A stretch of DNA of 64,000 nt, taken from contig OZ024741.1 of assembly GCA_964016885.1 (NCBI GenBank), positions 280,798,001-280,862,000 on the forward strand, read 5' to 3'. Numbering within the stretch: position 1 is the first letter of the stretch; each line of letters starts with the position of its first letter. Made by a program: the position numbers and the translations under genes. Shown here piece by piece: positions 14,566 to 62,560 of the stretch. A model generated the notes under the pieces. That model searched no databases, was not told where the DNA came from, and saw only the letters and a list, made by a program, of their open reading frames with translations. This stretch comes from Eledone cirrhosa. Lineage: Eukaryota.

Positions 14566-15049
14566 CTTCCTGCTCCCTACTATCCCCCCCCCCCCCATAC
14601 ATTGTATACACGCCTGCTGGCTCTCTCTCAATCCCATCCCTTCTCTCTTCAAACATAAAATAAACTGTTGCGGGGTACAAAACTCAGAATTTGTCGACCC
14701 ATATTCTTGGCTACATCGCTCGCGTGAAATGTAATGTACGAATCCTATTTTCTCGTCTCTCCATGCTCCCTTGTCCATTCATCTATCTGTATCATATCAT
14801 CCAGAATACTACAGTTATATGCTCATTCGATTATGGCCAAAATTTCGTGGATTTTATTTTATAACCTTCTCGCTAACTACCCCAGATCCCTCCCCCCGCC
14901 CTCACTCACCACCATTATTATTTGGACCAATCATAAGTCAGCGGCCTATGTTATCACTTAAGTTTAGACCTGGTTGCCTTTTGATATGATGGATGGACTA
15001 CGGAATTCTGGAGAGTCTGAAAAAATCTGGACACTCAGTGACAATGCCA

Positions 15050-18000
15050 AAGACAAAGACAAATTCACCTCATGCTGCCGGACGAGAATGCAAGGACTCC
15101 TCCTCATTATTTAGGCCGCGGACGGCTAACATAGCCCCATCTCCCTCACCCTTCTCTGTGCCCTGTCCTTCCGACCCACCAAACGCAATCCAAAACTTCA
15201 GAGTTGGTACCATGAATGTAGGTATCTTAAAAGGTCGCTCTAACGAGGTTGTAGAGATGCTTGAACATAAGGAGGTTGATGTTTGCTTTTATTCAAGAGA
15301 CCAGGTGGAGGGGTAGGTCTGCTAGATTCAGTGTGGGTAAAAAACGATGCTATAAGCTTTTCTGGGTGGGAAATGACAATGGGCTGGGTGGAGTAGGAAT
15401 CATGCTAGCAGAAAAATGGGTAGATAAGATAATAGACGTAAATAGAGTGAACGACAGAATAATTAAAATAAGACTTGTCCTCAATAGAACTACTGTGACA
15501 ATAATATCTGCGTATGCACCCCAACCCGGACTGCCTGGCATTATAAAAGACAGATTCTATGAGTCGTTAATGCTCATTACCTCCTAAATAACCGACAGTG
15601 ACTATATAATTATTACTGGCGACCTTAATGATCACGTTGAACAACATTGTGACGGCTATGACGGAATCCATGGAGGCTATGGGTTTGGTACTAGAAATGA
15701 GGAAGGCTCCAGAATCCTGGAATTCTGTGATCCAAATAATCTAACTATCTGTAACACGAACTTCAAAAAACGAGACAATCACTTGATCGTCTATAGATCA
15801 GGGGAACACGCCAGTCAGATAGATTATATCCTTACCAGAAGACGAGACAGAGTGTCTGTTGTAAACACTAAATCCCTCCTCCATGAAGAATGCACCTCCC
15901 AACATAGCCTCATAGTTAGCGACCTCATAGTCAGGACGAGGTGTATTCGACAACAGAGGACTATCCTTCGGAGAAAAATACGGAAGTTAAAGGACCCCAC
16001 AGCCAGTAATAAATTTAAAAGCATATTACTTGATGCTTTTGACAGTAAGGAAGAGCAATTAGAGTCGTACAATATAGAGAAACAGTGGGAATTCCTGAAA
16101 GCTAACCTGCTGAAGGCGACAGATGAAATCTGTGGCTGGAGCAGACCTATAGGCAGGAGGAGAGTAACTTGGTGGGTGAACAGTAAGGTGGAGGAGTCGA
16201 TCAAGGCCAAAAAGCAGGCTTGGAAAGTATGGTGGGATGGGGGAAGTAGAGAAGACTATCAAGTGGCCAGGAGGGAAGCTAGGAGACAAGTGCACTTCGC
16301 AAGAAGGGAAGCAGAGGAAAGAAAGTTCAAGCATCTTCTACAACGCGAGGACCAAAAACGTGAGGTGTTCAGGATTGCTAGACAATGTGTCAAGGAGAAC
16401 CGTGATATTCTCGGGGAGAAGTGTGTCTGTAATGATGATGGTGTACTTGCCATCACTGATGCTGGAAGTGTCACTACGAAAGGCTACTAAATGAGGAGAA
16501 TAAATGGGAGAAAGACAGTCTCCCCCACATCGATCCAATAGAGGGACCAGCAGTGCAAGTTGAAGGTAGTATAATAAATAAGGCAATCAAAGATATGAAG
16601 ATGGGCAAGGCGGCTGGGCCTTCGGAAATAGTTGCTGAAATCATCTGGAACGGTGGGACACACTATGGTCACCTGGATAGTAAACCAAGTTATACAGAAT
16701 GGGGTCGTACCAAAGTACTGGCGTAGCAGCATTATCGTTAACTGCTACAAGGGTAAAGGAGATGCCCTAGATAGGGGAAACTATAGAGGCATTAAATTAA
16801 TTGACCAGGTCATGAAGGTCACAGAAAAAGTAATAGCGCAACTAATCAGAGAACGAATTGATCTAGATGAAATGCAGTTCGGGTTTGTGTCAGGTAGAAG
16901 GACCATAGACGCTCTTTTCATTGTACGACAACTACAGAAGTACCTAGCTAAAAGTAAACCCCTCTACTTAGCTTTTGTAGACCTGGAGAAAGCCTTTGAC
17001 AGAGTCCTCCACTCCATTATCTGGTGGGCTCTTAGAAAACTAGGTGTAGATGAATGGCTTGTGAGAGCTATACAAGCCATGTATAAAGAAACAGTCAGCA
17101 AGGTTAGAATTAACAACGAATATAGTGAAGAGTTTAGCGTAAAAGTTGGTGTTCATCAGCGCTCCGTCCTTAGCCCCCTCCTATTTATTATCGCCCTCCA
17201 AGCTATAACGGGCGTGTTCATGACCGACTGCCCATGGGAACTTCTATACGCAGACGACCTGACACTCATAGCGGAATCAATGGCCGAGCTAGAGAAGAAA
17301 TTTCAAACATGGAAGCATGGCCTAGAATCAAAAGGCCTTAAAGTTAACTTGTTTAAGACTAAAGTCCTAATATGTAGGAAGGAGAATAGGGCACTGGTCC
17401 CATCTGGGAAATGGCCATGGTCAGTGTGTAGGAAAGGGGTAGGCAGAAACTCCATTTTATATCCCAAATGCAAAGTATGGGTGCATAAAAGATGTAGTGG
17501 GATCACAGGTAAGCTAACTAAGAATATAGATTTTATATGTAGCCAGTGCTCTAGTGCAATAAGTAGTAGCAAGTGCCCACAGGATACTAGCTCATTCCAT
17601 TGCCCAGATGGTTCTATAGAAATAGTGGACACCTTCCGTTACCTGGGTGACAAAATCAGCAGTGGTGGAGGGTGCTCCGAAAGGACTGTAGCTAGAGTCA
17701 GAACGGGATGGAAAAAGTTCAGAGAGCTTATACCACTATTGGCCGCTAAAAGTTTCTCTCTAAAAATAAAAGGCAGGCTGTATGATGCCTGCATACGAAC
17801 AGCGATGTTACATGGCAGTGAGACATGGGCCTTGTGTGCAGAGGATCTACGCAGACTGGAGAGGAACGAAGCTTGCATGCTCCGTTGGATGTGTAATAGT
17901 AATATACGCAAACGGCAAAGCATAAATGAACTAAGTGAGAAATTAGGAATAAGAGGGATCAGATGCTGTTTACTCGAGAGAAGACTTCGTTGGTATGGTC

Positions 18001-18596
18001 ACGTGATGCGCATGAAAGACGACAGCTGTATAAAAAAGTGCAGGGCGACCAAATAGACAGTAGCTACAGAGTAGGCAGACCCAGGAAAACCTGGGGCCAC
18101 TTGATAAAATCCGACCTCACACACTTACACTTCTCCAAGACAATGTCACTGGACCGAGATTTTTGGCGCTACTCAGTAATACAGAAGACCCACCTTGCCT
18201 AAGTACAAAGCGAAACCTACAGTCAGTAGGCACCTCTTAACCAAAATACACCCCCTTCCCACTACCCCTACCCCCACCGCCATCTACAGCACCCCTTTCG
18301 ATGTAAAGCTATGTTGGTACCACAACATCCAATCCTAAATAAATGAGGTTGTGTAGGTGTCACGACAAAAAAACACACAGTCCACGCTGTAATGTGGCCG
18401 TGTAGGTAACATGGTAAAAACCACCCAGTCCACACTGTAAACGTGGTTGGTGTTAGGAAGGGCATCCAGCCGTAGAAAACCCGCCAGACAGACCTGAGCA
18501 AGACAACCAATCTTGCCTCAAGTGGGACAATTCCCGTCCAGACCCATGCTAGCGTGGAAGATGGACGTTAAACGATGATGATGATGATGATGATGA
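15050..18596 (+). mobile_element. Near-full-length RTE LINE (APE endonuclease + RT + PHD-like finger), inactivated
   Basis: RVGTMNVG, QETRW, ISAYAPQ, SQIDYIL (APE); NYRGIKL, AFVDLEKAFD, GVHQ.SVLSPLLF, LLYADDL, FRYLG (RT); (GAT)n tail at ~18573-18596; several stops and frameshifts. The 5' boundary is uncertain. Confidence 0.92.
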
Positions 18597-21538: not shown

Positions 21539-24500
21539 TATCATCATCATCATCATCATCGTTTAACGTCCATCTTCCACGCTTGCATGGGTTTGGACGG
21601 GAGTTTTCCCACTTGAGGCAAGATTGGTTGTCCTGCTCGTATAGGACTGTCTGGCAGGTTTTCTAGGGTTGGATGCCCTTCCTAACACCAACCACGTTTA
21701 CAGTGTGGGTCTGGGAGCTTTTTACCGTGTTACCTATACGGCCACATTACAGCGTGGACTGTGTGTTTTTTTGTCGTGACACCTACACGTCTGGCGGGTT
21801 TTCTACGGCTGGCGGGTTTTCTACGGCTGGCTGCCCTTCCTAACACCAACCACGTTTACAGTGTGGACTGGGAGCTTTTTACCGTGTTACCTATACGGCC
21901 ACATTACAGCGTGGACTGTGTGTTTTTTTGTCGTGACACCTACACGTCTGGCGGGTTTTCTACGGCTGGCTGCCCTTCCTAACACCAACCACGTTTACAG
22001 TGTGGACTGGAAGCTTTTTACCGTGTTACCTATACGGCCACATTACAGCGTGGACTGTGTGTTTTTTTGTCGTGACACCTACACGTCTGGCGGGTTTTCT
22101 ACGGCTGGCTGCCCTTCCTAACACCAACCACGTTTACAGTGTGGACTGGGAGGTTTTTACCGTGTTACCTATACGGCACATTACAGCGTGGACTGTGTGT
22201 TTTTTTGTCGTGACACCTACACGTCTGGCGGGTTTTCTACGGCTGGCTGCACTTCCTAACACCAACCACGTTTACAGTGTGGACTGGGAGGTTTTTACCG
22301 TGTTACCTATACGGCCACATTACAGCGTGGACTGTGTGTTTTTTTGTCGTGACACCTACACGTCTGGCGGGTTTTCTACGGCTGGCTGCCCTTCCTAACA
22401 CCAACCACGTTTACAGTGTGGACTGGAAGGTTTTAACCGTGTTACCTACACGGCCACATTACAGCGTGGACTGTGTGTTTTTTTGTCGTGACACCTACAC
22501 GTCTGGCGGGTTTTCTACGGCTGGCTGCCCTTCCTAACACCAACCACGTTTACAGTGTGGACTGGGAGGTTTTAACCGTATTACCTACACGGCCACATTA
22601 TAGCGTGGCTGTGTGTTTTTTTGTCGTGACACCTACAGGTCTGGCGGGTTTTCTACGGCTGGCTGCCCTTCCTAACACCAACCACGTTTACAGTGTGGAC
22701 TGGGAGGTTTTTACCGTGTTACCTATATGGCCACATTACAGCGTGGACTGTGTGTTTTTTTTGTCGTGACACCTACACGACTTCATTTGTTTCGGACTGG
22801 ATGTTGTAGTACCAACATAACTTCACATTGAAGGAGGTGGTGTGGATGGGGTGGGGGTAGTGGGCAGGGGTGTATTTTTGTTAGAGGTGCCTACTGACTG
22901 TAGGTTTCGCTTTGTACTTAGGCAAGGTGGGTCTTCTGTATTACTGAGTAGCGCCAAAGATCTCGGTCCAGTGACATTGTCTTGGAGAGGTGTAAGTGTG
23001 TGAGGTCGGAATTTATCAAGTAGTCCCAGGTTTTTCTGGGTCTGCCTACTCCGTGGCAACCATCTATTTTTATCGCCGTGCACTTTTTTATACAGCTGTC
23101 GTCTTTCATGCGCATCACATGTCCATACCAACGTAGTCTTCTCTCCAGTAAACAACATCTGATCCCTCTTATTCCTAATTTCTCCCTTAGTTCATTTATG
23201 CTTTGCCGTTCACGTATATTACTATTACACATCCAGCGGAGCATGTAAGCTTCGTTCCTCTCCAGTCTGCGTATATCCTCTGCACACAATGCCCAGGTCT
23301 CACTGCCATGTAACATCGCTGTTCGTATGCAGGCATCATACAGCCTGCCTTTCATTTTTAGAGAGAACCCTTTAGTGGCCAATAGTGGTATAAGCTCTCT
23401 GAACTTTTTCCATCCCGTTCTGACTCTAGCTACTGTACTTTCAGAGCACCCTCCCCCACTGCTGATTTTGTCACCCAGGTAACGGAAGGTGTCCACTATT
23501 TCTATAGAACCATCTGTGCAATGGAATGAGCTAGTATTCTGTGGGCACTTGCTGCTACTTATTGCACCAGAGCACCAGAGCACCGGTCACATATAAAATC
23601 TATATTCTTAGTTAGCTTACCTGTGATCCCACTACATCTTTTATGCACCCATACTTTGCATCTGGGACATAAAATGGAGTTTCTGTCTACTCCTTTCCTA
23701 CACACTGAGCATGGCCATTTCCCAGATGGGACCGGTGCCCTATTTTGCTTCCTACAAACTAGAACTTTAGTCTTAGACAAGTTAATTTTAAGGCCTTTTG
23801 ATTTTAGGCCATGCTTCCATGTTTGAAATTTCTTCTCTAGTTCAGCCATTGATTCAGCTATGAGCGTTAGATCATCTACATGAAGGGCAATAATAAATAG
23901 TAGGGGGCTAAGAACGGAGCCCTGATGAACACCAACTTTTACGCTAAACTCTTCACTATATTCGTTATTAATTCTAACCTTGCTGACTGTTTCTTTATAC
24001 ATGGCTTGTATAGCTCTCACAAGCCATTCATCAACACCTAGTTTTCTAAGAGCCCACCAGATAATGGAGCGGGGGACTGTCAAAGGCTTTCTCCAAGTCA
24101 ACAAAAGCTAAGTATTATTATTACTTTTAGCTAGGTACTTCTCCTGTAGTTGTCGTACAATGAAAAGAGCGTCTGTGGTACTTTTACCTGACACAAACCC
24201 GAACTGCATTTCATCTTGATCAATTCGTTCTCTGATTAGTTGCGCTATTACTTTTTCTGTGACCTTCATGACCTGGTCGATTAATTTAATGCCTCTATAG
24301 TTACCCCTATCTAGGGCATCTCCTTTACCCTTGTAGCACTTAATTATGATGAGGCTACGCCAGTCCTTCGGAACAGCCCCATTCTGTATGACTTGGTTTA
24401 CTATCTGGGTGACCATAGTGTGTCCCACCGTTCCAGATGCTTTCAGCATTTCAGCAACTATTTCCGATAACACAGCCGCCTTACCCGTCTTCATATCTTT

Positions 24501-25962
24501 GATTGACTTACTTATTATACTACCTTCAACTAGCACTGCTGGTCCCTCTATTGGATCGATGTGGGGGAGATTGTCTTTCTCCCATTTATTCTCCTCATTT
24601 AGTAGCCTTTCGTAGTGACACTTCCAAGCTACCTTCTTATCAGCGTCAGTGATGGCAAGTACACCATCATCATTACGGACACACTTCTCCCCGAGAATAT
24701 CATGGTTCTCCTTGACACATTGTCTAGCAATCCTGAACACCTCACGTTTTTGGTCCTCGCGTTGTAGAAGATGCTTGAACTTTCTTTCCTCTGCTTCCCT
24801 TCTTGCGAAGTGCACTTGTCTCCTAGCTTCCCTCCTGGCCACTTGATAGTCTTCTCTACTTCGCCCCTCCCACCATACTCCTCCACCTTACTGTTCCACC
24901 ACCATGTTACTCTCCTCCTGCCTATAGGCCTGCTCCAGCCACAGACTTCATCTGTCGCCTTCAGCAGGTTAGCTTTCAGGAATTGCCACTGTTCCTCTAT
25001 ATTGTACGACTCTAATTGCTCTTCCTTACTGTCGAAAGCATCAAGTAATATGCTTTTAAATTTAATACTGGCTGTGTGGTCCTTTAGCTTCCATATTTTT
25101 CTCCTGAGGATAGTCCTCCTCTGTTGTCGAGTACGTCTTGTCCTGACTATGAGTCTATGTTGGGAGGTGCATTCTTCATGGGGGAGGGATTTAGTGTTTA
25201 GAACAGACACTCTATCACGTCTTCTGGTAAGGATATAATCTATCTGACTGGTGTGTTCCCCTGATCTATAGGTGATCAAGTGATTGTCTCGTTTTTTGAA
25301 GTTAGTGTTCCAGATAGTTAGGTTATTTGGATCACACAATTCCAGGATTCTGGAGCCTTCCTCATTTCTAGTACCAAACCCATAGCCTCCATGGATTCCG
25401 TCATAGCCGTCACAATGTTGTCCAACGTGACCATTTAGGGCGCCAGCAATAATTATGTAGTCACTGTCGGTTATTTGGGAGGTAGCAAGCATCAATGTCT
25501 CATAGAATCTGTCTTTTATAGCGCCAGGCAGTCGGGATTGGGGTGCATACGCAGATATTACTGTCACAGTAGTTCTATTTAGGACAATTCTTATTTTAAT
25601 TTTTTTCTGTCGTTCACTCTATTTACGTCTATTATCTTATCTACCCATTTTTCTTCTAACATGATTCCCCAGCCCATTGTCATTTCTCACCCAGAAAAGC
25701 TTATAACATCGTTTTTTACCCACAATGAATCTAGCAGACCCACCCCTCCACCTGGTCTCTTGGATACAGCAAACATCAACCTCCTTATGTTCAAGCATTT
25801 CTACAACCTCGTTAGAGCGACCTTTTAAGGTGCCTACATTCATGGTACCAATTCTGAAGTTTTGGATTGCGTTTGGTGGGTGGGAACGGTGGGGCGCGGG
25901 GAGGGGGGGAGGGGGAGGGGGTTGGGGTTATGTTCGTGGCCGAAACAAAGAGGGGGAGTCAT
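21539..25962 (-). mobile_element. Near-full-length RTE LINE, inverted relative to 15050-18596, inactivated
   Basis: ORFs 25637-25843, 24629-25567, 24108-24842, 23559-24104 and 22918-23583 tile the same APE-RT protein. A deletion turns the YADD box into HVDD. The (GAT)n tail is at 21539-21560. Confidence 0.92.
21650..22778. repeat. Tandem array of a ~139-bp unit, about 8 copies, inside the RTE 3' UTR
   Basis: Unit ctggcgggttttctacggctggctgcccttcctaacacc...gtcgtgacacctacacgt; repeated ORF starts at 21861, 22000 and 22277 confirm the period. Confidence 0.95.
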
Positions 25963-26858: not shown

Positions 26859-28075
26859 CAGGGTGTGGACAATATTTGTTCGCAATTTTCAACTGCTAAT
26901 TTTATGCAAATTATTTTTACTTCTGTTGTCACTCTTGTCTTCATAAAAACTGACTATATTTCCATTATTTATTTTCAGAATAATCGATTATGAATAATTT
27001 TGAACCTCCAAATTTGTGGAAGAGACAAGGAGTTCTTCTTGGAATCCGCGCCAGGAGGACAAATAAGGAAATTTCAGACTTTCTCAGCGTCAGCAGGAGA
27101 ATGGTGGAAAAGGTCAGAAAGGAATTGGAAGATTCAGGATTCGACTACGAAGCAACATCAGAGAGGAAAACACAGGATCGACGATCTGACGCCTTCAGAA
27201 CGCCCAAGTTCGTCGCTGAAGTTCAGGATGTCATCAACAATGAACCTAGCAAGTCGATGCGTGCCATTGCAAGGGAGAAAGGCATGGATGAAAAGCTCAT
27301 TAGGCTGGTGGTACATGAAGAGATTCGCTATGTTTCATACAAGATGAGGAAAGGATAATTTCTGTCAAAGGCGATGCAAGAAAAGCGACTGAAGCACACA
27401 AAGAAGCTGATCAACAAGTTGAAACACCCACTGGAGCCAGACATGCTGTGGTTTTTCTCCGACGAGAAAAACTTCTGCCAAGACCAGAAGATCAACTCCC
27501 AGAACAACAGGTGGCTCGCTGTCTCATCCAAAGACGTGCCCAGAGTCATTCAGACAAAGTTTCCAGCGACAACATTGGTCTTAGGTGTCGTCAGCAGTCA
27601 AGGTGACGTCATTCCACCTCACTTCTTCCCTGAGGGCCTCAAGCTGAACACGGATGGCTACATCTGCGTTCTGAGCGAGGTAGTAAAGCCCTGGATCGAC
27701 CAGGTAGCTGCAGGTAGGCCATACGTGTAGCAGCAAGACTCAGCGTCCTGCCATACCAGCCGAAAGACCCAAGCCTGGCTGTCAGAGAACTTCAACGACT
27801 ACACTTCACCTGACATCTGGCCGCCCAGCTCACCTGACTGCAACCCCCTCGCCTTCTTTGTGTGGGGCGCAGTGGAATGAGACACCAACAGATCTAGCTG
27901 CAATATGAAAGATGATCTGAAGGCCAGGATCACAAGTACCTTTAGGGGCCTAAGTCGGGGGACAGTGACGAAGGCCTGTAGCCAGTTCCAAGGCCGCCTT
28001 GAGGCCATCATCAAAGCCAATGGCAGGTTTATCGAGTTAGATCGAAAGAACAAGTCATGAAGACAAACTGACCCA
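26859..28075 (+). mobile_element. Tc1/mariner superfamily DD37D (maT-type) transposon, dead, right TIR not seen
   Basis: Left end TA|CAGGGTGTGGACAATATTTG. Transposase frame 26990-28060 (357 codons) has in-frame stops at 27356, 27728 and 27878. Motifs FSDEKNF, QQD-x37-A (SPDCNPLA; GCC where GAC is expected). Confidence 0.88.
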
Positions 28076-28492: not shown

Positions 28493-28981
28493 CCCAAATC
28501 TGGAATCAGGATTGATCTGACTGATGCAGAGGCTCAATCATGACAGAACGACGCCAACTATGATAAGGAACAAATCCAGATGTTAAGGGACAGTCTGCCC
28601 AGCTCTCAGTCCCTATCTAGCATCAAACTGACCCCGATAGAATTTGAGAAGGATGATGATAATAACCTTCATATGAACTTGAGGGCTGAGAACTATAATA
28701 TCCCACCTGCCGACAAACACACGTGTAAATTGATTGCAGGTAAAATTATTCCAGCTATTGCCACGACAACCTCATTAATCGTGGGGTTGGTATGTTTGGA
28801 GATGTGTAAGCTAGTCCAGAAACTCAAGAAAAGTGAGTGCTTCAAAAATGGTTTTGTTAATCTGGCGCTGTCTTTTTTTGCCTTCTCTGAACCAATCTTG
28901 GCCCCTAAACACAAGTACTATGACACTGAGTTCAGTCTGTGGCACAGGTTTATAGTTGAAGGTGACATGACTTTAAACTAG
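28493..28981 (+). pseudogene. UBA1: UBA1 fragment, intronless over ~490 bp, disabled
   Basis: [58 protein letters not shown]. Has an internal TGA and lacks the conserved DFIxAAS segment between HM and NLRA. Confidence 0.9.
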
Positions 28982-42169: not shown

Positions 42170-43176
42170 AATTGCGCAGAGGGTTCTATAGAAATAGTGG
42201 ACAGCTTCCGTTACCTGGGCGATAAAATCAGCAGTGGGGGAGGGTGCTCTGAAAGTACTGTAGCTAGAGTCAGAACTGGTTGGAAAAAGTTCAGAGAGCT
42301 TATACCACTATTAGCTGCTAAAGGGTTCTCACTAAAAATGAAAGGCAGGTTGTACGATGCCTGCATACGAACAGCAATGCTGCATGGCAGTGAGACCTGG
42401 GCATTGTGTGCAGAGGATATACGCAGACTAGAGAGGAACGAAGCTTGCATGCTCCGCTGGATGTGTAACAGTAATATACGTGAACGGCAAAGCATAAACG
42501 AACTAAGGAAAAAATTAGAGATAAGAGGGATCAGATGTTGTTTACTCGAGAGAAGGCTACGTTGGTATGGACACGTGATGCGCATGAAAGTCGATAGCTG
42601 TATAACAAAGTGCAGGGCAATAAAGATAGACGGTAGTCACGGAATAGGCAGACCTAGAAAAACCTGGGACGAGCTGATAAACTCCGACATCACACACTTA
42701 CACCTCTCCAAGACAATGTCACTGGACCGAGACCTTTGGCGGTACTCAGTAACAGAGAAGACCCGCCTTACCTAAATATATAGTAAAACCTACTCCAGCC
42801 AGTAGGCATCTCTAACAAAATACACCCCGTCCCACCACCACCACCCCCACCCGATCCACACCACCCCGTTCTATGTAAAGTTATGTTGGTGCCGCGCCAT
42901 CGAGGCCGAAACAAATGAGATCGTGTAGGTGTCACGACAAAAAAACACACAGTCCACGCTGTAATGTGGCCGTGTAGGCAACACGGTAAAAACCTCCCAG
43001 ACCCACACTGTAAATGTGGTTGGTGTTAGGAAGGGCATCCAACTGTAGAAAACCTGCCAGACAGTCCTATGCGAGCAAGACAATCACTCTTGCCTCAAGT
43101 GGGACTACCCCCGTCCAAACCCATGCAAGCGTGGAACACGGACGTTAAACGTTGATGATGATGATGATGATGATGA
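42170..43176 (+). mobile_element. RTE LINE, 5'-truncated, open C-terminal frame
   Basis: ORF 42197-42775 FRYLGDKISSGGGCSE...RRLRWYGHVMRM, then 3' UTR and (GAT)n tail. Confidence 0.92.
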
Positions 43177-58390: not shown

Positions 58391-61129
58391 TTAGACAGGT
58401 TGCTTCCGATCATCAACATCAAAATCTAATACCATTAACTTTGTTTCTTCTGTACCATTCCGACTGCCAACAGCACATATAAGTTTGGTGTTGGTACAGC
58501 GTACCCGCCATACAACACCACCACTTCCGCCACTTTCTAGTGTCACTAAATTCCGTAGAAACTCACCAGTTTTTAAGTCCCAGATTTTTACAGTTCCATC
58601 ATCCGATGAAGTTATCACAAATTTTTTGTTAAACTGCAAGCAAGTGACAGCGCTCTGGTGTCTGTTCGGACCCTGCAGTGTCTGAAGGCAACGACCTGTG
58701 CGGATATCCCAAACTTTAACAGTAGAATCAGCATTGCCTGAAACAAGTATATTTTCTTTCAGTTCCATCCCACTGGTCAGCGACTGATGACCAATGAGAG
58801 TATGTAGGCAAGTGCCTGTCTCAACATCCCAGACTCGAATTGATGTATCCAAAGAGCCACTAACTATGTGTGTACCATCAAACTGTAGTGAGTACACTCT
58901 GTTAGTGTGTCCTTGCAGAGAGTGGAGACAGGCTTCAGTCTCTGGGTCCCACACTTTAACTGTGTAATCATAGGCTCCACTGACCACTCGTCGTCCATCA
59001 TATTGAACACAGCGCACTGCTGCGACATGCCCCATCAATACATGCAAGCACTGACCTGTGTCAATGTCCCAAACACGAAGTGTAGCATCTCTCGAACCAC
59101 TCACAACTTTATTCCCATGCAAGTGCATACAACGTACCGTCGATGTGTGGCCATATAAAGTATGAATACACTGACCAGTCTCTGCATTCCAAACTTTAAG
59201 TGTTCTGTCTGTAGATCCACTAATAATGATATTTTCGGCCATCTGAGATGCCCACACACCACCAGTATGACCAATAAGTGTTCGTAGACATTTCCCGGTT
59301 AGTGATGACCAAACTTTTAGAGTGTTATCATCAGACCCACTGACAATTCTGCTACCACAAAATTCTAGACAGGTTATCACATGATCCTCATGGCCTTTGA
59401 GGAGTTTTGGGGGACGAATTTTACCACATCTCCAATACTGTTCGATCTGATGTTGTCGCATGTAAAGAGTTTTCCAGGGACTTCTCAACATTCCCTGAGA
59501 TCGTCGTCTTACACTATATCCAAATACTAAAGATTCATCAATTCCTTCTTCGTTACATTTTTCACGCCAAAGTAAATTGTCCTCGGTAAGAACACGCCAA
59601 TAACGGCAAGTCTGTGCTGCACGAAGAAGATCTTTTGGGCCAAGGTAGGATAGTACATACAATGCCAATTCCTTTGGAAGCAGTGAAATGAAATCCCTTT
59701 GGAACTGAGGCTCAATAACCTGCATGATATGTCTAACTTGGGTGGGTTCACATAGTTCGATCATCTCATCTAAAGCTAAGCACCGCTCGGGATTACTCCA
59801 AGACTGGAATGTCTGTAACCATTGAGCAAGTTCTGGAGGGGGGTTGCTTTTTGATGGAATTTTTTTCCTAGTAAAACCCATATTTAAAGTAGACAGGTTA
59901 TGAGAGCGCAAAGTGTCAGAATTGAAGAGTTCCGTTGAAGAACGACATTTCTTTCCTGGTGTGGTTTCTTCCTCTTCTTGCCAGCCCATGTCCTGCTTTC
60001 TTTTCATCATATATTTTACTTTGTGTTGGTGAATAGGCACTGGAATACGAGATTTCAGTGGATGGCCAGAAAATAAACTTTGATGAGGACTGATAGACGA
60101 CAATGATGCTGACCCTGTGCCAGAATTACCATCGCTACAACTGTTATCTAAACTGGCTCCTTTGCCATTAACACCACTATTACTCTGATCGTCATTAGCT
60201 TCACATCCCCTTCCTCTTCCAATACCTGAGTCGTTAGCCGACACATTCCAGTCTTCGGACTTATCAGGAGGATTGTTGTTATTGTTATTATTATTGTTGT
60301 TATTATTATTATTATTACTAGTCCAACTATCTGAATCGGCTTGAATAATATCATTAGTTGTTACCTTCAAGGATACTTGGACAGTCATTTTATCTTCTGC
60401 GGTTGGAGGAGGGTTTTCGGAAGCGTCTTCACTGACCAACACCAAACTCTGCCGGTCTTGTTCAGAGGTAGAACTGGTCGCACTACTAGCACCTTCAGAA
60501 CATTCCAAATAACAAAGATTCTCACTTGGACGATTTACACGAAGGCCACTTGAGGTGGAGGAGGACCTACTCTTGCTTGTAGAAGGGTCCCATTTAACAT
60601 TGATGGCGTATGATGTTGGAATAGTAGTAGTCGCCGGTGGAGAGGTAGTAGTAATAGTACAAGTAGATGATAGCGACGATGTAGATGGAGAACTAAAACA
60701 AGTATTATTCGAAGAACTTGTATTAAGTACAGATGTACAAGTAAATGATGAAGTAGTGCAAACAGTAGTAGTAGAAGAAGTAGAAGAAGAAAGAGAAGAG
60801 GAAGCCTCTGTACATTGATGGTCTTTACCGTCACTTACTTCATTACTGCTATTTACCGTAGATTGTCTGGGTCGCCGCGGAGACTTCACACTGTAAGGTA
60901 CACAACCTAGACTGGATTTGTTCGATTCTAGCCATTCAGTAGTGATGCCGTTAACTTTACACAAATCATCGACACAGCTGAATCCTCCTAAACGCTTCCG
61001 AGTCTCGACTATACTCTCTGCTCTTCTAGGGCCGATCCTATCAAGCGAAGTTAGCTCCTCAACGCATGCCAGATTAACATCTATCTTCTTCTCAGTTGCC
61101 CCACTCGTGTTTTTCTTTTTTCCTACCAT
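58391..61129 (-). CDS. FBXW7: Single-exon F-box/WD40 protein FBXW7 (Cdc4/Archipelago) with N-terminal ComEA-like HhH domain, 912 aa
   Basis: Uninterrupted ORF; first ATG at 61129 (the track starts at a TTG), with an in-frame TAG upstream at 61163-61165. Contains the D-domain QWLQTFQSWS..EPQFQRDFISLLPKELALYVLS, an F-box and WD40 repeats with the three phosphodegron arginine motifs (TSTVRC, SGSRDA, AAVRC), and C-terminal GSRNGTEETKL. Confidence 0.96.
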   Translation of the reverse strand: MVGKKKNTSGATEKKIDVNLACVEELTSLDRIGPRRAESIVETRKRLGGFSCVDDLCKVNGITTEWLESNKSSLGCVPYSVKSPRRPRQSTVNSSNEVSDGKDHQCTEASSSLSSSTSSTTTVCTTSSFTCTSVLNTSSSNNTCFSSPSTSSLSSTCTITTTSPPATTTIPTSYAINVKWDPSTSKSRSSSTSSGLRVNRPSENLCYLECSEGASSATSSTSEQDRQSLVLVSEDASENPPPTAEDKMTVQVSLKVTTNDIIQADSDSWTSNNNNNNNNNNNNNNNPPDKSEDWNVSANDSGIGRGRGCEANDDQSNSGVNGKGASLDNSCSDGNSGTGSASLSSISPHQSLFSGHPLKSRIPVPIHQHKVKYMMKRKQDMGWQEEEETTPGKKCRSSTELFNSDTLRSHNLSTLNMGFTRKKIPSKSNPPPELAQWLQTFQSWSNPERCLALDEMIELCEPTQVRHIMQVIEPQFQRDFISLLPKELALYVLSYLGPKDLLRAAQTCRYWRVLTEDNLLWREKCNEEGIDESLVFGYSVRRRSQGMLRSPWKTLYMRQHQIEQYWRCGKIRPPKLLKGHEDHVITCLEFCGSRIVSGSDDNTLKVWSSLTGKCLRTLIGHTGGVWASQMAENIIISGSTDRTLKVWNAETGQCIHTLYGHTSTVRCMHLHGNKVVSGSRDATLRVWDIDTGQCLHVLMGHVAAVRCVQYDGRRVVSGAYDYTVKVWDPETEACLHSLQGHTNRVYSLQFDGTHIVSGSLDTSIRVWDVETGTCLHTLIGHQSLTSGMELKENILVSGNADSTVKVWDIRTGRCLQTLQGPNRHQSAVTCLQFNKKFVITSSDDGTVKIWDLKTGEFLRNLVTLESGGSGGVVWRVRCTNTKLICAVGSRNGTEETKLMVLDFDVDDRKQPV

Positions 61130-62560
61130 ATTCTTCAAGCAAAAGGCAGGATTCTTGGCAAACTATTGAGAGTCAAAGATGATTGAACGGCAGCCGACTC
61201 TCTGACGACCGCCATTAGAGTCCACACTGCTATTTTGTACCACCTTCGAAGAACACAAATGACAACACGTTCATAAACGCGACTATATAAACACATAAAT
61301 TGTCAGTTAACGATATTTCAAATTCAAAAAATAAATATTAAATCCTCTCAAACATTCAAAAAGATCTTAATTTTTAGACAAGCTTGAAAGTTACAGTTTT
61401 ATGCGGTATTAGTTTCGTAATTTAAAAATGATAGCTCCACATGTATTTAACAGCTCTCAAAGTGAAGGCATGGGGGACAAGTTTTATTTTTCAATATAGA
61501 TTAACTTTTCTTCTTGCTCTCCTCCCAGTCAGTTTTATTGTGGAAATGGAACTTTTACTATATTCCTGTGTATATTTGCCCTTAAATCAAATAGTGATTT
61601 AATTAGATATGTATTTCTGCTTACTTGTACGTCTAATTACCATAATGTTAATGATCTAATTTAATTCGTGAATATATACATATATATATATATATACATG
61701 TGTGTGTGTGTGCGGAGATATATATGTATATATATTTATTTGTATATTCAACATAAAATGTTCAACAAACGACGTCGTAAATATTTTAACACGTGCTTGT
61801 TGATAATTTTTTTGAATTTTATTATTTTATTTTTGTCCGGTATATTTAAAGGTTTTCTTTTTCACTTTATTTTAACAGGGAAATGTAATTCTCGCTTGTA
61901 GACTACTATGCCGAGGCTGACACGTTATAATGTCGACACCTTATTTTTTTTACAGAAGGAATCTCCATCCTCAATGAATGACCAAACGTTTCTACTTAAA
62001 TGTCTTTTATTTGTATTCGTTCATTTAATTAAACGCATTTGTTTATATATCTCACACGAAATATAATTAAAAAAATTTTTTTTAATCAATTTAATGAAGG
62101 AAATAAATACAAAAGACAGGAGAATGCCACTCACTATATAATAGACAAAAAGGTATTGGCAAATGATAGTGAAAAAAATTATAAAGCTTCTCTCAAGTTT
62201 AAAAAAAATCTATTTTTAATGTATTTTTATTCTTTACTACCCAATAATTAATTCTAAATAAAATTGTACATTTTTTTAAATATCAGTATTATAGAAATAT
62301 CTATTGCGGAAGTTCAATTTGATGTCAAAATAATAAACAAACAGTATTTTTTAAAAATATTTTTTTAATTCAAACATTTTAAAATAGAACTTGTTACTTA
62401 ATTTAAATATTATCAGAAGCTTGAAAATTTACACTTTACACCTTAAGGAAAAAAAAAAAAAAAAAGATCCAGCAGCCGTATGTGTGTTTGAAAAAGAAAG
62501 AGATTCGTGGTTCGATTCCTCGCAGCAGGTGTCTGTCAACTTTTTTCGATATTATAGAAA

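Follow-up and report, generated by a model that had tools for sequence, protein, structure and literature searches.

Why should FBXW7, a substrate receptor of ubiquitin ligases, carry in Eledone cirrhosa a domain of a DNA-binding family, and does this pairing belong to one lineage or to animals in general? The question is raised by a gene in a 64,000-nucleotide stretch of the genome (the window; assembly GCA_964016885.1, contig OZ024741.1, positions 280,798,001 to 280,862,000 of the forward strand). On the minus strand of the window, positions 58391 to 61129, read from 61129 down to 58391, form one frame of 912 codons and a stop, with no internal stop. The initial annotation had read this frame as FBXW7 joined, without stop or frameshift, through a Ser/Thr/Asn-rich linker of about 350 residues to a ComEA-like tandem helix-hairpin-helix (HhH) domain. 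The uninterrupted frame bears this out, as does the layout of its product, in which the HhH is followed by a linker at residues 77-424 and then by the F-box and propeller (Table 1). The comparisons described below suggest that FBXW7 with an HhH is likely to be the ancestral animal form.

The assignment of the amino-terminal domain to the ComEA/HHH_3 family has held up. Residues 13-73 match the Pfam profile HHH_3 (PF12836) with 54 bits (cut-off 27; E 1.8e-14), and when the first 80 residues are compared with the sequences of solved structures, the best matches are EEPD1, ComEA, and KIF22. Scored domain by domain, the HhH gives 37.2 bits with ComEA, 33.7 with KIF22, and 27.0 with EEPD1. The peptide on which the domain had been recognized does begin at 61084, as placed at the time, but it ends at 60926 and not near 60914. 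AlphaFold2, given a 20-sequence alignment of orthologues, predicts the HhH with a predicted local distance difference test score (pLDDT) of about 91 and with helices at residues 23-27, 33-47, 53-58, and 64-73. Fold searches with the whole model as query listed propeller matches only. An atlas search returned HHH_3 clusters only, all below 0.9; this is a lead and not evidence on origin.

Among 81 distinct domains of this kind, Asn19, Gly33, Ala37, Arg44, and Phe50 are invariant, position 36 is lysine or arginine in every one, and Gly61 is present in 78. In the Eledone protein, Arg36 aligns with a conserved ComEA lysine (the K164 position, the numbering being matched by lysine spacing), and for ComEA it is reported that lysine mutation abolishes both DNA binding and transformation (K164/K166 data; PMC9747964). 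Across 20 lophotrochozoan proteins, the mean pairwise identity of the HhH is 0.51, as against 0.12 for the linker. The two hairpins of the Eledone domain read RIG and GIT, so that one glycine is replaced in each.

By sequence, the 912-residue protein is orthologous to the named FBXW7 proteins. Against human FBXW7 structures its core gives E 4e-268 and, in Foldseek, 84% identity, while a structure comparison (VIA) to 7t1y_B gives Z 49.2 and a root mean square deviation of 1.7 over 339 residues. Identity of the core to named mollusc and vertebrate FBXW7 is 79-86%, with one fast-evolving goby model at 74%, and a quick, midpoint-rooted tree of the core, built from 45 chosen rows, places the Eledone protein within the lophotrochozoan FBXW7 clade (SH-aLRT, an approximate likelihood ratio test, 98). 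Arg666, Arg680, and Arg706 match, in identical contexts, the human phosphodegron arginines R465, R479, and R505; this human numbering is derived from chain offsets and an FBXW7 length of 707 residues. The helices at residues ~425-478 are, from their position, presumably the FBXW7 dimerization (D) domain. The 348-residue linker before them is predicted to be disordered and fast evolving, and in-frame indels occur within it among close orthologues.

Because an in-frame stop lies 12 codons upstream, Met1 is the first possible start of this exon; its context has A at -3 and G at +4. The basic patch at residues 4-6 (KKK) is a possible nuclear localization signal. Three close orthologues have the same start and architecture, identity being 75-81% over residues 1-90 and 97% for the core, and no entry identical to the 912-residue protein was found in a collection of 15 billion protein sequences. 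In four sequencing runs from two relatives, which we guess to be RNA, overlapping contigs cover the HhH and the core with no splice joint, but no single contig in those runs spans the two. This gives weak support for a single transcript from HhH to WD40. No RNA run is listed for the window's own sequence, which says nothing on expression.

The distribution of the pairing was surveyed in databases. A first search with the core found the HhH in 40 of 124 proteins (in one of them the second half only). The carriers include bivalves, gastropods, a chiton, the brachiopod Lingula, the nemertean Lineus, and the annelid Owenia; no named carrier was a vertebrate, and the domain fell below threshold in the vertebrate proteins and three caenogastropods of this search. 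A 50%-cluster search (best 150 matches listed, 10 of them named) added three crustaceans, the tunicate Styela, the cnidarian Clytia, and a bird protein. A broader profile then added Branchiostoma, Glandiceps, three starfish, and more crustaceans, together with FBXW7-like carriers in sharks, rays, lungfish, newt, caecilian, turtles, squamates, and birds, but no full HhH from a mammal or teleost was among the 120 broader-profile matches listed. The domain is likewise absent from every listed FBXW7 isoform of Epargyreus and Hermetia. In all, 99 of 254 proteins with an FBXW7 core have the full HhH, a figure from a search-biased set that is not a prevalence. The three caenogastropod models lack an HhH that other gastropods keep and are a candidate for recent loss within molluscs.

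The simplest reading of these sequences is that HhH-bearing FBXW7 goes back to the bilaterian ancestor, probably further, and was lost several times, including in at least some insects and caenogastropods. The evidence for a pre-bilaterian origin comes from a single cnidarian genus, whose domain is divergent (61 bits). The rarity that the initial annotation had implied is not supported: the architecture is shared by protostomes and deuterostomes, and by one cnidarian and a vertebrate paralogue.

This paralogue, FBXW7-like, lies beside RRP8. In database models from sharks to birds it has, like the Eledone protein, a complete HhH and an FBXW7 core (for example XP_061845805.1, mis-named RRP8 isoform X6); it differs in that its HhH is split by an inferred intron and that it is known from database models only. 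In the quick tree, the FBXW7-like proteins form a clade (support 99) that is sister to canonical vertebrate FBXW7 (84), with both together at 97. From such sequences we infer an early-vertebrate duplication in which the copy beside RRP8 kept the HhH. In annotations FBXW7-like often bears the name "ribosomal RNA-processing protein 8"; many of the bird models are RRP8-FBXW7-like chimeras. These are joined at the second-hairpin exon and may be either read-through transcripts or merged gene models.

What, then, became of the domain in canonical vertebrate FBXW7? The initial annotation held that canonical FBXW7 lacks it. This is true of the full domain, but a degenerate second half is likely retained upstream of the start methionine. 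Many canonical vertebrate models have, 5' of the alpha methionine, a near-invariant stretch of 23 residues beginning NVKTF, which aligns without gaps to the second half of the HhH and puts the methionine inside the domain's last helix. With a lophotrochozoan profile, the 23 residues before the alpha methionine ranked first in 50 of the 52 proteins scored (3 of 55 being too short). Since the register had first been seen with lophotrochozoan sequences, the test was repeated with three independent training sets, and the same segment ranked first in 56/56, 55/56, and 55/56 canonical proteins with invertebrate-deuterostome, paralogue, and crustacean profiles, respectively. With the deuterostome and paralogue profiles, bony-vertebrate segments reach 10.5-17.7 bits; among 161,153 control segments from 104 unrelated proteins, the maxima were 4.5 and 8.7 bits, and none reached 10. 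The gene models of the two named insects, the three caenogastropods, and eleven other FBXW7 representatives gave no such remnant (best score 5.7 bits), though an exon may have been missed in these models.

The inferred exon structure is consistent with this register. Unrelated upstream sequences converge at the N of NVKTF in the canonical proteins and at the E of ELKGF in the paralogue chimeras (18/18), and both points lie four residues before a conserved Phe; one chimera shares one further residue, and in one nemertean isoform the change seems to fall close to this junction. In addition, for human FBXW7 the 25 codons before the ATG have a PhyloCSF score of 52.0 over 120 mammals (PMC9789052, Supplementary Data 1A), and FBXW7 is among the 60 genes that this source gives as having positive PhyloCSF upstream of the ATG. 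Several points weigh against the remnant: among the 56 proteins there are only 15 different segments, and these are related; the two from cartilaginous fishes have negative scores; ordinary searches are weak, with hidden Markov model E values of 0.009-1 (in a set of ~300-370 proteins) and an hhalign probability of 56% (E 1.1e-4); and the exon junctions were deduced from protein models, not read from genomes. If the homology is real, the canonical copy would have shed both the exon for the first hairpin and the hairpin glycines, and its start would now be the methionine within the last helix. Having lost these glycines, the remnant would be unlikely to bind DNA.

A Cys-rich amino-terminal sequence of ~50 residues precedes the NVKTF stretch in 22 of the 56 models and in a clipped gibbon form. 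Lying 5' of the alpha exon, it is conserved in vertebrates as far apart as sawfish, teleosts, and mammals. We take it to resemble an acylation signal. This exon suggests an AUG-initiated route for translating the HhH remnant, and with it an uncharacterised extended isoform. By eye the exon is unlike the first hairpin, and the profile matches never reached into it. In AlphaFold2 models of the vertebrate extended forms, pLDDT is below 50 for residues 1-305, and the remnant helix is of low confidence (~30-40). Another upstream stretch, which ends in KYL (5 models), was noticed by eye to resemble weakly the end of the first-hairpin helix.

Other explanations have been considered for the vertebrate stretch and for the fusion as a whole. 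The 23 codons could be conserved for reasons that act on the RNA, as a leader or internal ribosome entry site (IRES), and not as a translated HhH remnant, an idea that touches only the vertebrate corollary. The literature reports an IRES in the 120 bases upstream of the circ-FBXW7 open reading frame (PMC6019044) and alternative leaders that alter translation efficiency (PMC3498124); the FBXW7 row of the PhyloSET data has no Ribo-seq (ribosome profiling) or proteomics entry (PMC9789052), and the low-confidence helix points the same way. Nevertheless, the gap-free HhH register with its clean controls, the positive PhyloCSF, and the inferred junction shared with the paralogue make this rather unlikely; moreover, constraint on the RNA could account for the survival of a remnant but would not produce homology. 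As for the fusion itself, it had been proposed that the domain may have been recruited from a mobile element or a host gene, which would make it a recent, lineage-specific capture. The Eledone gene is indeed intronless and sits amid fragments of long interspersed nuclear elements (LINEs), which would suit retroposition of the entire gene. Against this, a search of the 3.0 Gb genome matched the HhH sequence once, and FBXW7 proteins of many phyla carry this domain at the equivalent position. That the domain arrived recently or from a mobile element is scarcely credible, and the wide phyletic distribution leads us to reject it.

If the domain is ancestral, what would it do? The reading that we favor, with moderate confidence and by analogy with related domains, is that the HhH provides a weak, dimer-boosted, sequence-independent tether of SCF-FBXW7 (the SKP1-CUL1-F-box ligase) to DNA, which would raise the ligase concentration near phosphorylated chromatin-bound substrates. 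The F-box would bind SKP1-CUL1 and the propeller would bind phosphodegrons, as in human FBXW7. Dimerization through the D domain would give each complex two HhH domains on flexible arms of 350 residues; one HhH would bind DNA weakly, and two would provide avidity, as in the EEPD1 dimer. The ligase would thus be held near phosphorylated DNA-bound transcription factors, and perhaps near damage sites, without a substrate having to bring it there. The universal retention of Gly33 and of lysine or arginine at position 36 in the 81 domains speaks for such tethering. Human Fbw7 is reported to target DNA-bound factors; it uses dimers, and loses its chromatin association when substrate binding is mutated (PMC8926403), which is as expected of a form that has no DNA-binding domain of its own. 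EEPD1 is reported to bind DNA only as a full-length dimer with multiple flexibly tethered HhH domains (PMC12988330).

There are several points on the other side. The Eledone domain has a net charge of only +2, and its Gly31 is replaced by Arg (Gly in 77/81) and its Gly63 by Thr (Gly in 41/81). In EEPD1, no DNA binding was reported for the tandem HhH region on its own, and in XPF-ERCC1 and Mus81-Eme1 such domains serve to dimerize proteins (PMC12988330). Furthermore, humans and the insects tested manage without a full HhH, and thus it is not essential to FBXW7 function. The partly degenerate hairpins and the low charge leave room for a protein-interaction role, and the ancestral, constrained domain could be a module for protein contacts, for assisting dimerization, or for binding another polyanion (RNA or poly-ADP-ribose), rather than a DNA tether. 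The HhH heterodimers and the isolated EEPD1 region that did not bind DNA would fit such a module, as would a second hairpin that is degenerate in several lineages and a vertebrate remnant that is conserved though its hairpin glycines are gone. Yet Gly33 and a basic residue at 36, the position needed by ComEA for DNA binding, were kept in 81 of 81, and we regard this alternative as unlikely. Still less probable is that the HhH mainly loads FBXW7 at DNA breaks or stalled forks instead of transcription-factor sites. Human FBXW7 is reported to promote end joining and to reach damage sites because its WD40 domain binds poly-ADP-ribose (PMC6486556), and the EEPD1 HhH domains are reported to act at reversed forks (PMC12988330), but the recruitment so described needs no HhH, and there is no sequence hint of structure-specific binding.

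Joined to the vertebrate observations, DNA tethering leads to a wider and more tentative proposal, one that we think may well prove wrong. Ancestral FBXW7 would have bound DNA by itself; the vertebrate paralogue, seen in this survey from sharks to birds and not in mammals or teleosts, would have kept this head; and the tumor-suppressor copy would have lost it while still making a longer isoform, in which the Cys-rich exon is spliced to the remnant, possibly a lipid-anchored fourth form of human Fbw7.

Within the Eledone genome, searches with the core and with the D domain and F-box (88 of 142 candidates scored in one, 19 of 19 in the other) found no second close FBXW7 copy, the other matches having 26-42% and 31-41% identity. 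The intronless gene thus appears to be the genome's only FBXW7; one possibility is a retrocopy that took over from the parental gene. In a nemertean and in vertebrate relatives an intron seems to interrupt the HhH, while the Eledone gene has no introns. The other HHH_3 loci of the genome are separate genes. An EEPD1-like gene (contig C19:23311762-23312250) has two HHH_3 domains in one open frame, which score 44.4 and 37.7 bits on the FBXW7-HhH profile, and two further HHH_3 loci are present. The Eledone frame itself was considered as EEPD1 and rejected: it has one HhH, the remainder is linker, F-box, and WD40, and the EEPD1-like gene is a separate locus. The features of the gene and its surroundings are collected in Table 1.

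Table 1. Features of the FBXW7 gene and of its surroundings, in window positions.
Feature	Position	Strand	Basis
FBXW7 reading frame, single exon, 912 residues	58391..61129	-	translation
In-frame stop, 12 codons 5' of Met1	61163..61165	-	sequence
Basic patch KKK, residues 4-6	61112..61120	-	translation; RKK at the equivalent place in three close orthologues
ComEA-type tandem HhH domain, residues 13-76	60902..61093	-	PF12836 profile and predicted structure
First hairpin, residues 29-36, including Gly33 and Arg36	61022..61045	-	alignment to 8dfk_A
Second hairpin, residues 59-63, second glycine replaced by Thr	60941..60955	-	alignments; Thr also in KIF22 and the vertebrate paralogue
Ser/Thr/Asn-rich linker, residues 77-424	59858..60901	-	pLDDT mostly <50; mean identity 0.12
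Helical region, residues ~425-478	59696..59857	-	three predicted helices; mean identity 0.76
F-box, residues 481-526	59552..59689	-	PF12937 E 2.4e-16
WD40 propeller, residues 569-907	58409..59425	-	PF00400 E 3.8e-54; structure match
Ubiquitin-activating enzyme E1 gene fragment, possibly a processed pseudogene	28580..28981	+	PF10585 E 7.7e-12
LINE-type retrotransposon copy	14993..18056	+	16665-18056 frame: RVT_1 E 2.1e-27
LINE-type retrotransposon copy	22823..25492	-	
LINE-type retrotransposon copy	42338..42775	+	
Two adjacent frames, broken Tc1/mariner-type transposase by eye	26990..27730	+	no Pfam match at E 0.001

How does this protein compare with known systems? KIF22 is a kinesin motor with its HhH at the carboxyl terminus, unlike the amino-terminal HhH found here. 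Its domain (PDB 2edu) is the same and has both of the hairpin substitutions of the Eledone protein (RIG and GIT). With the DNA-binding domain of ComEA (PF12836; PDB 8dfk, 8dss), the Eledone HhH shares the profile family and a basic residue after the first hairpin, and it has the two hairpin motifs in partly degenerate form; it differs in sitting on a ubiquitin-ligase receptor, in having two hairpin glycines substituted, and in lacking a basic residue at the K193 position. EEPD1 (PDB 9yi2), the best whole-sequence PDB match, likewise has amino-terminal ComEA-type HhH flexibly tethered to a dimerizing core, but there two tandem HhH precede an EEP hydrolase fold, whereas here one HhH precedes the F-box and WD40. 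Human FBXW7 (Fbw7, hCdc4; PDB 2ovr, 7t1y) shares the F-box, the WD40 propeller, the three phosphodegron arginines, and ~84% identity over the solved region; to this the Eledone protein adds a complete amino-terminal HhH, and its gene is single-exon, so that the alternative first exons of the vertebrate alpha, beta, and gamma forms would be impossible here.

Each of the two parts belongs to a known family, and the HhH-FBXW7 pairing can already be read from the Pfam annotation of database proteins. It is thus widespread in databases, but no description of an HhH on FBXW7, of the FBXW7-like paralogue, or of the remnant was found in the open-access literature searched, subscription papers being outside that scope. 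Term searches of PMC12045569, PMC2446394, and the PMC6871517 supplement gave nothing bearing on HhH-FBXW7. One co-mention turned up, in a paper on SMUG1.

FBXW7 is a heavily studied tumor suppressor that degrades DNA-bound transcription factors, and the human protein is reported to reach chromatin only via its substrates (PMC8926403). A predicted DNA-binding form, present in many phyla and absent from the annotated mammalian protein, would thus provide a test case for a DNA-tethered ligase and for its substrate choice. The comparison also draws attention to the vertebrate paralogue, which often stands in databases under the wrong name, RRP8. Finally, it suggests where the unexplained coding-type conservation of the human FBXW7 leader may come from and points to a possible extended isoform.

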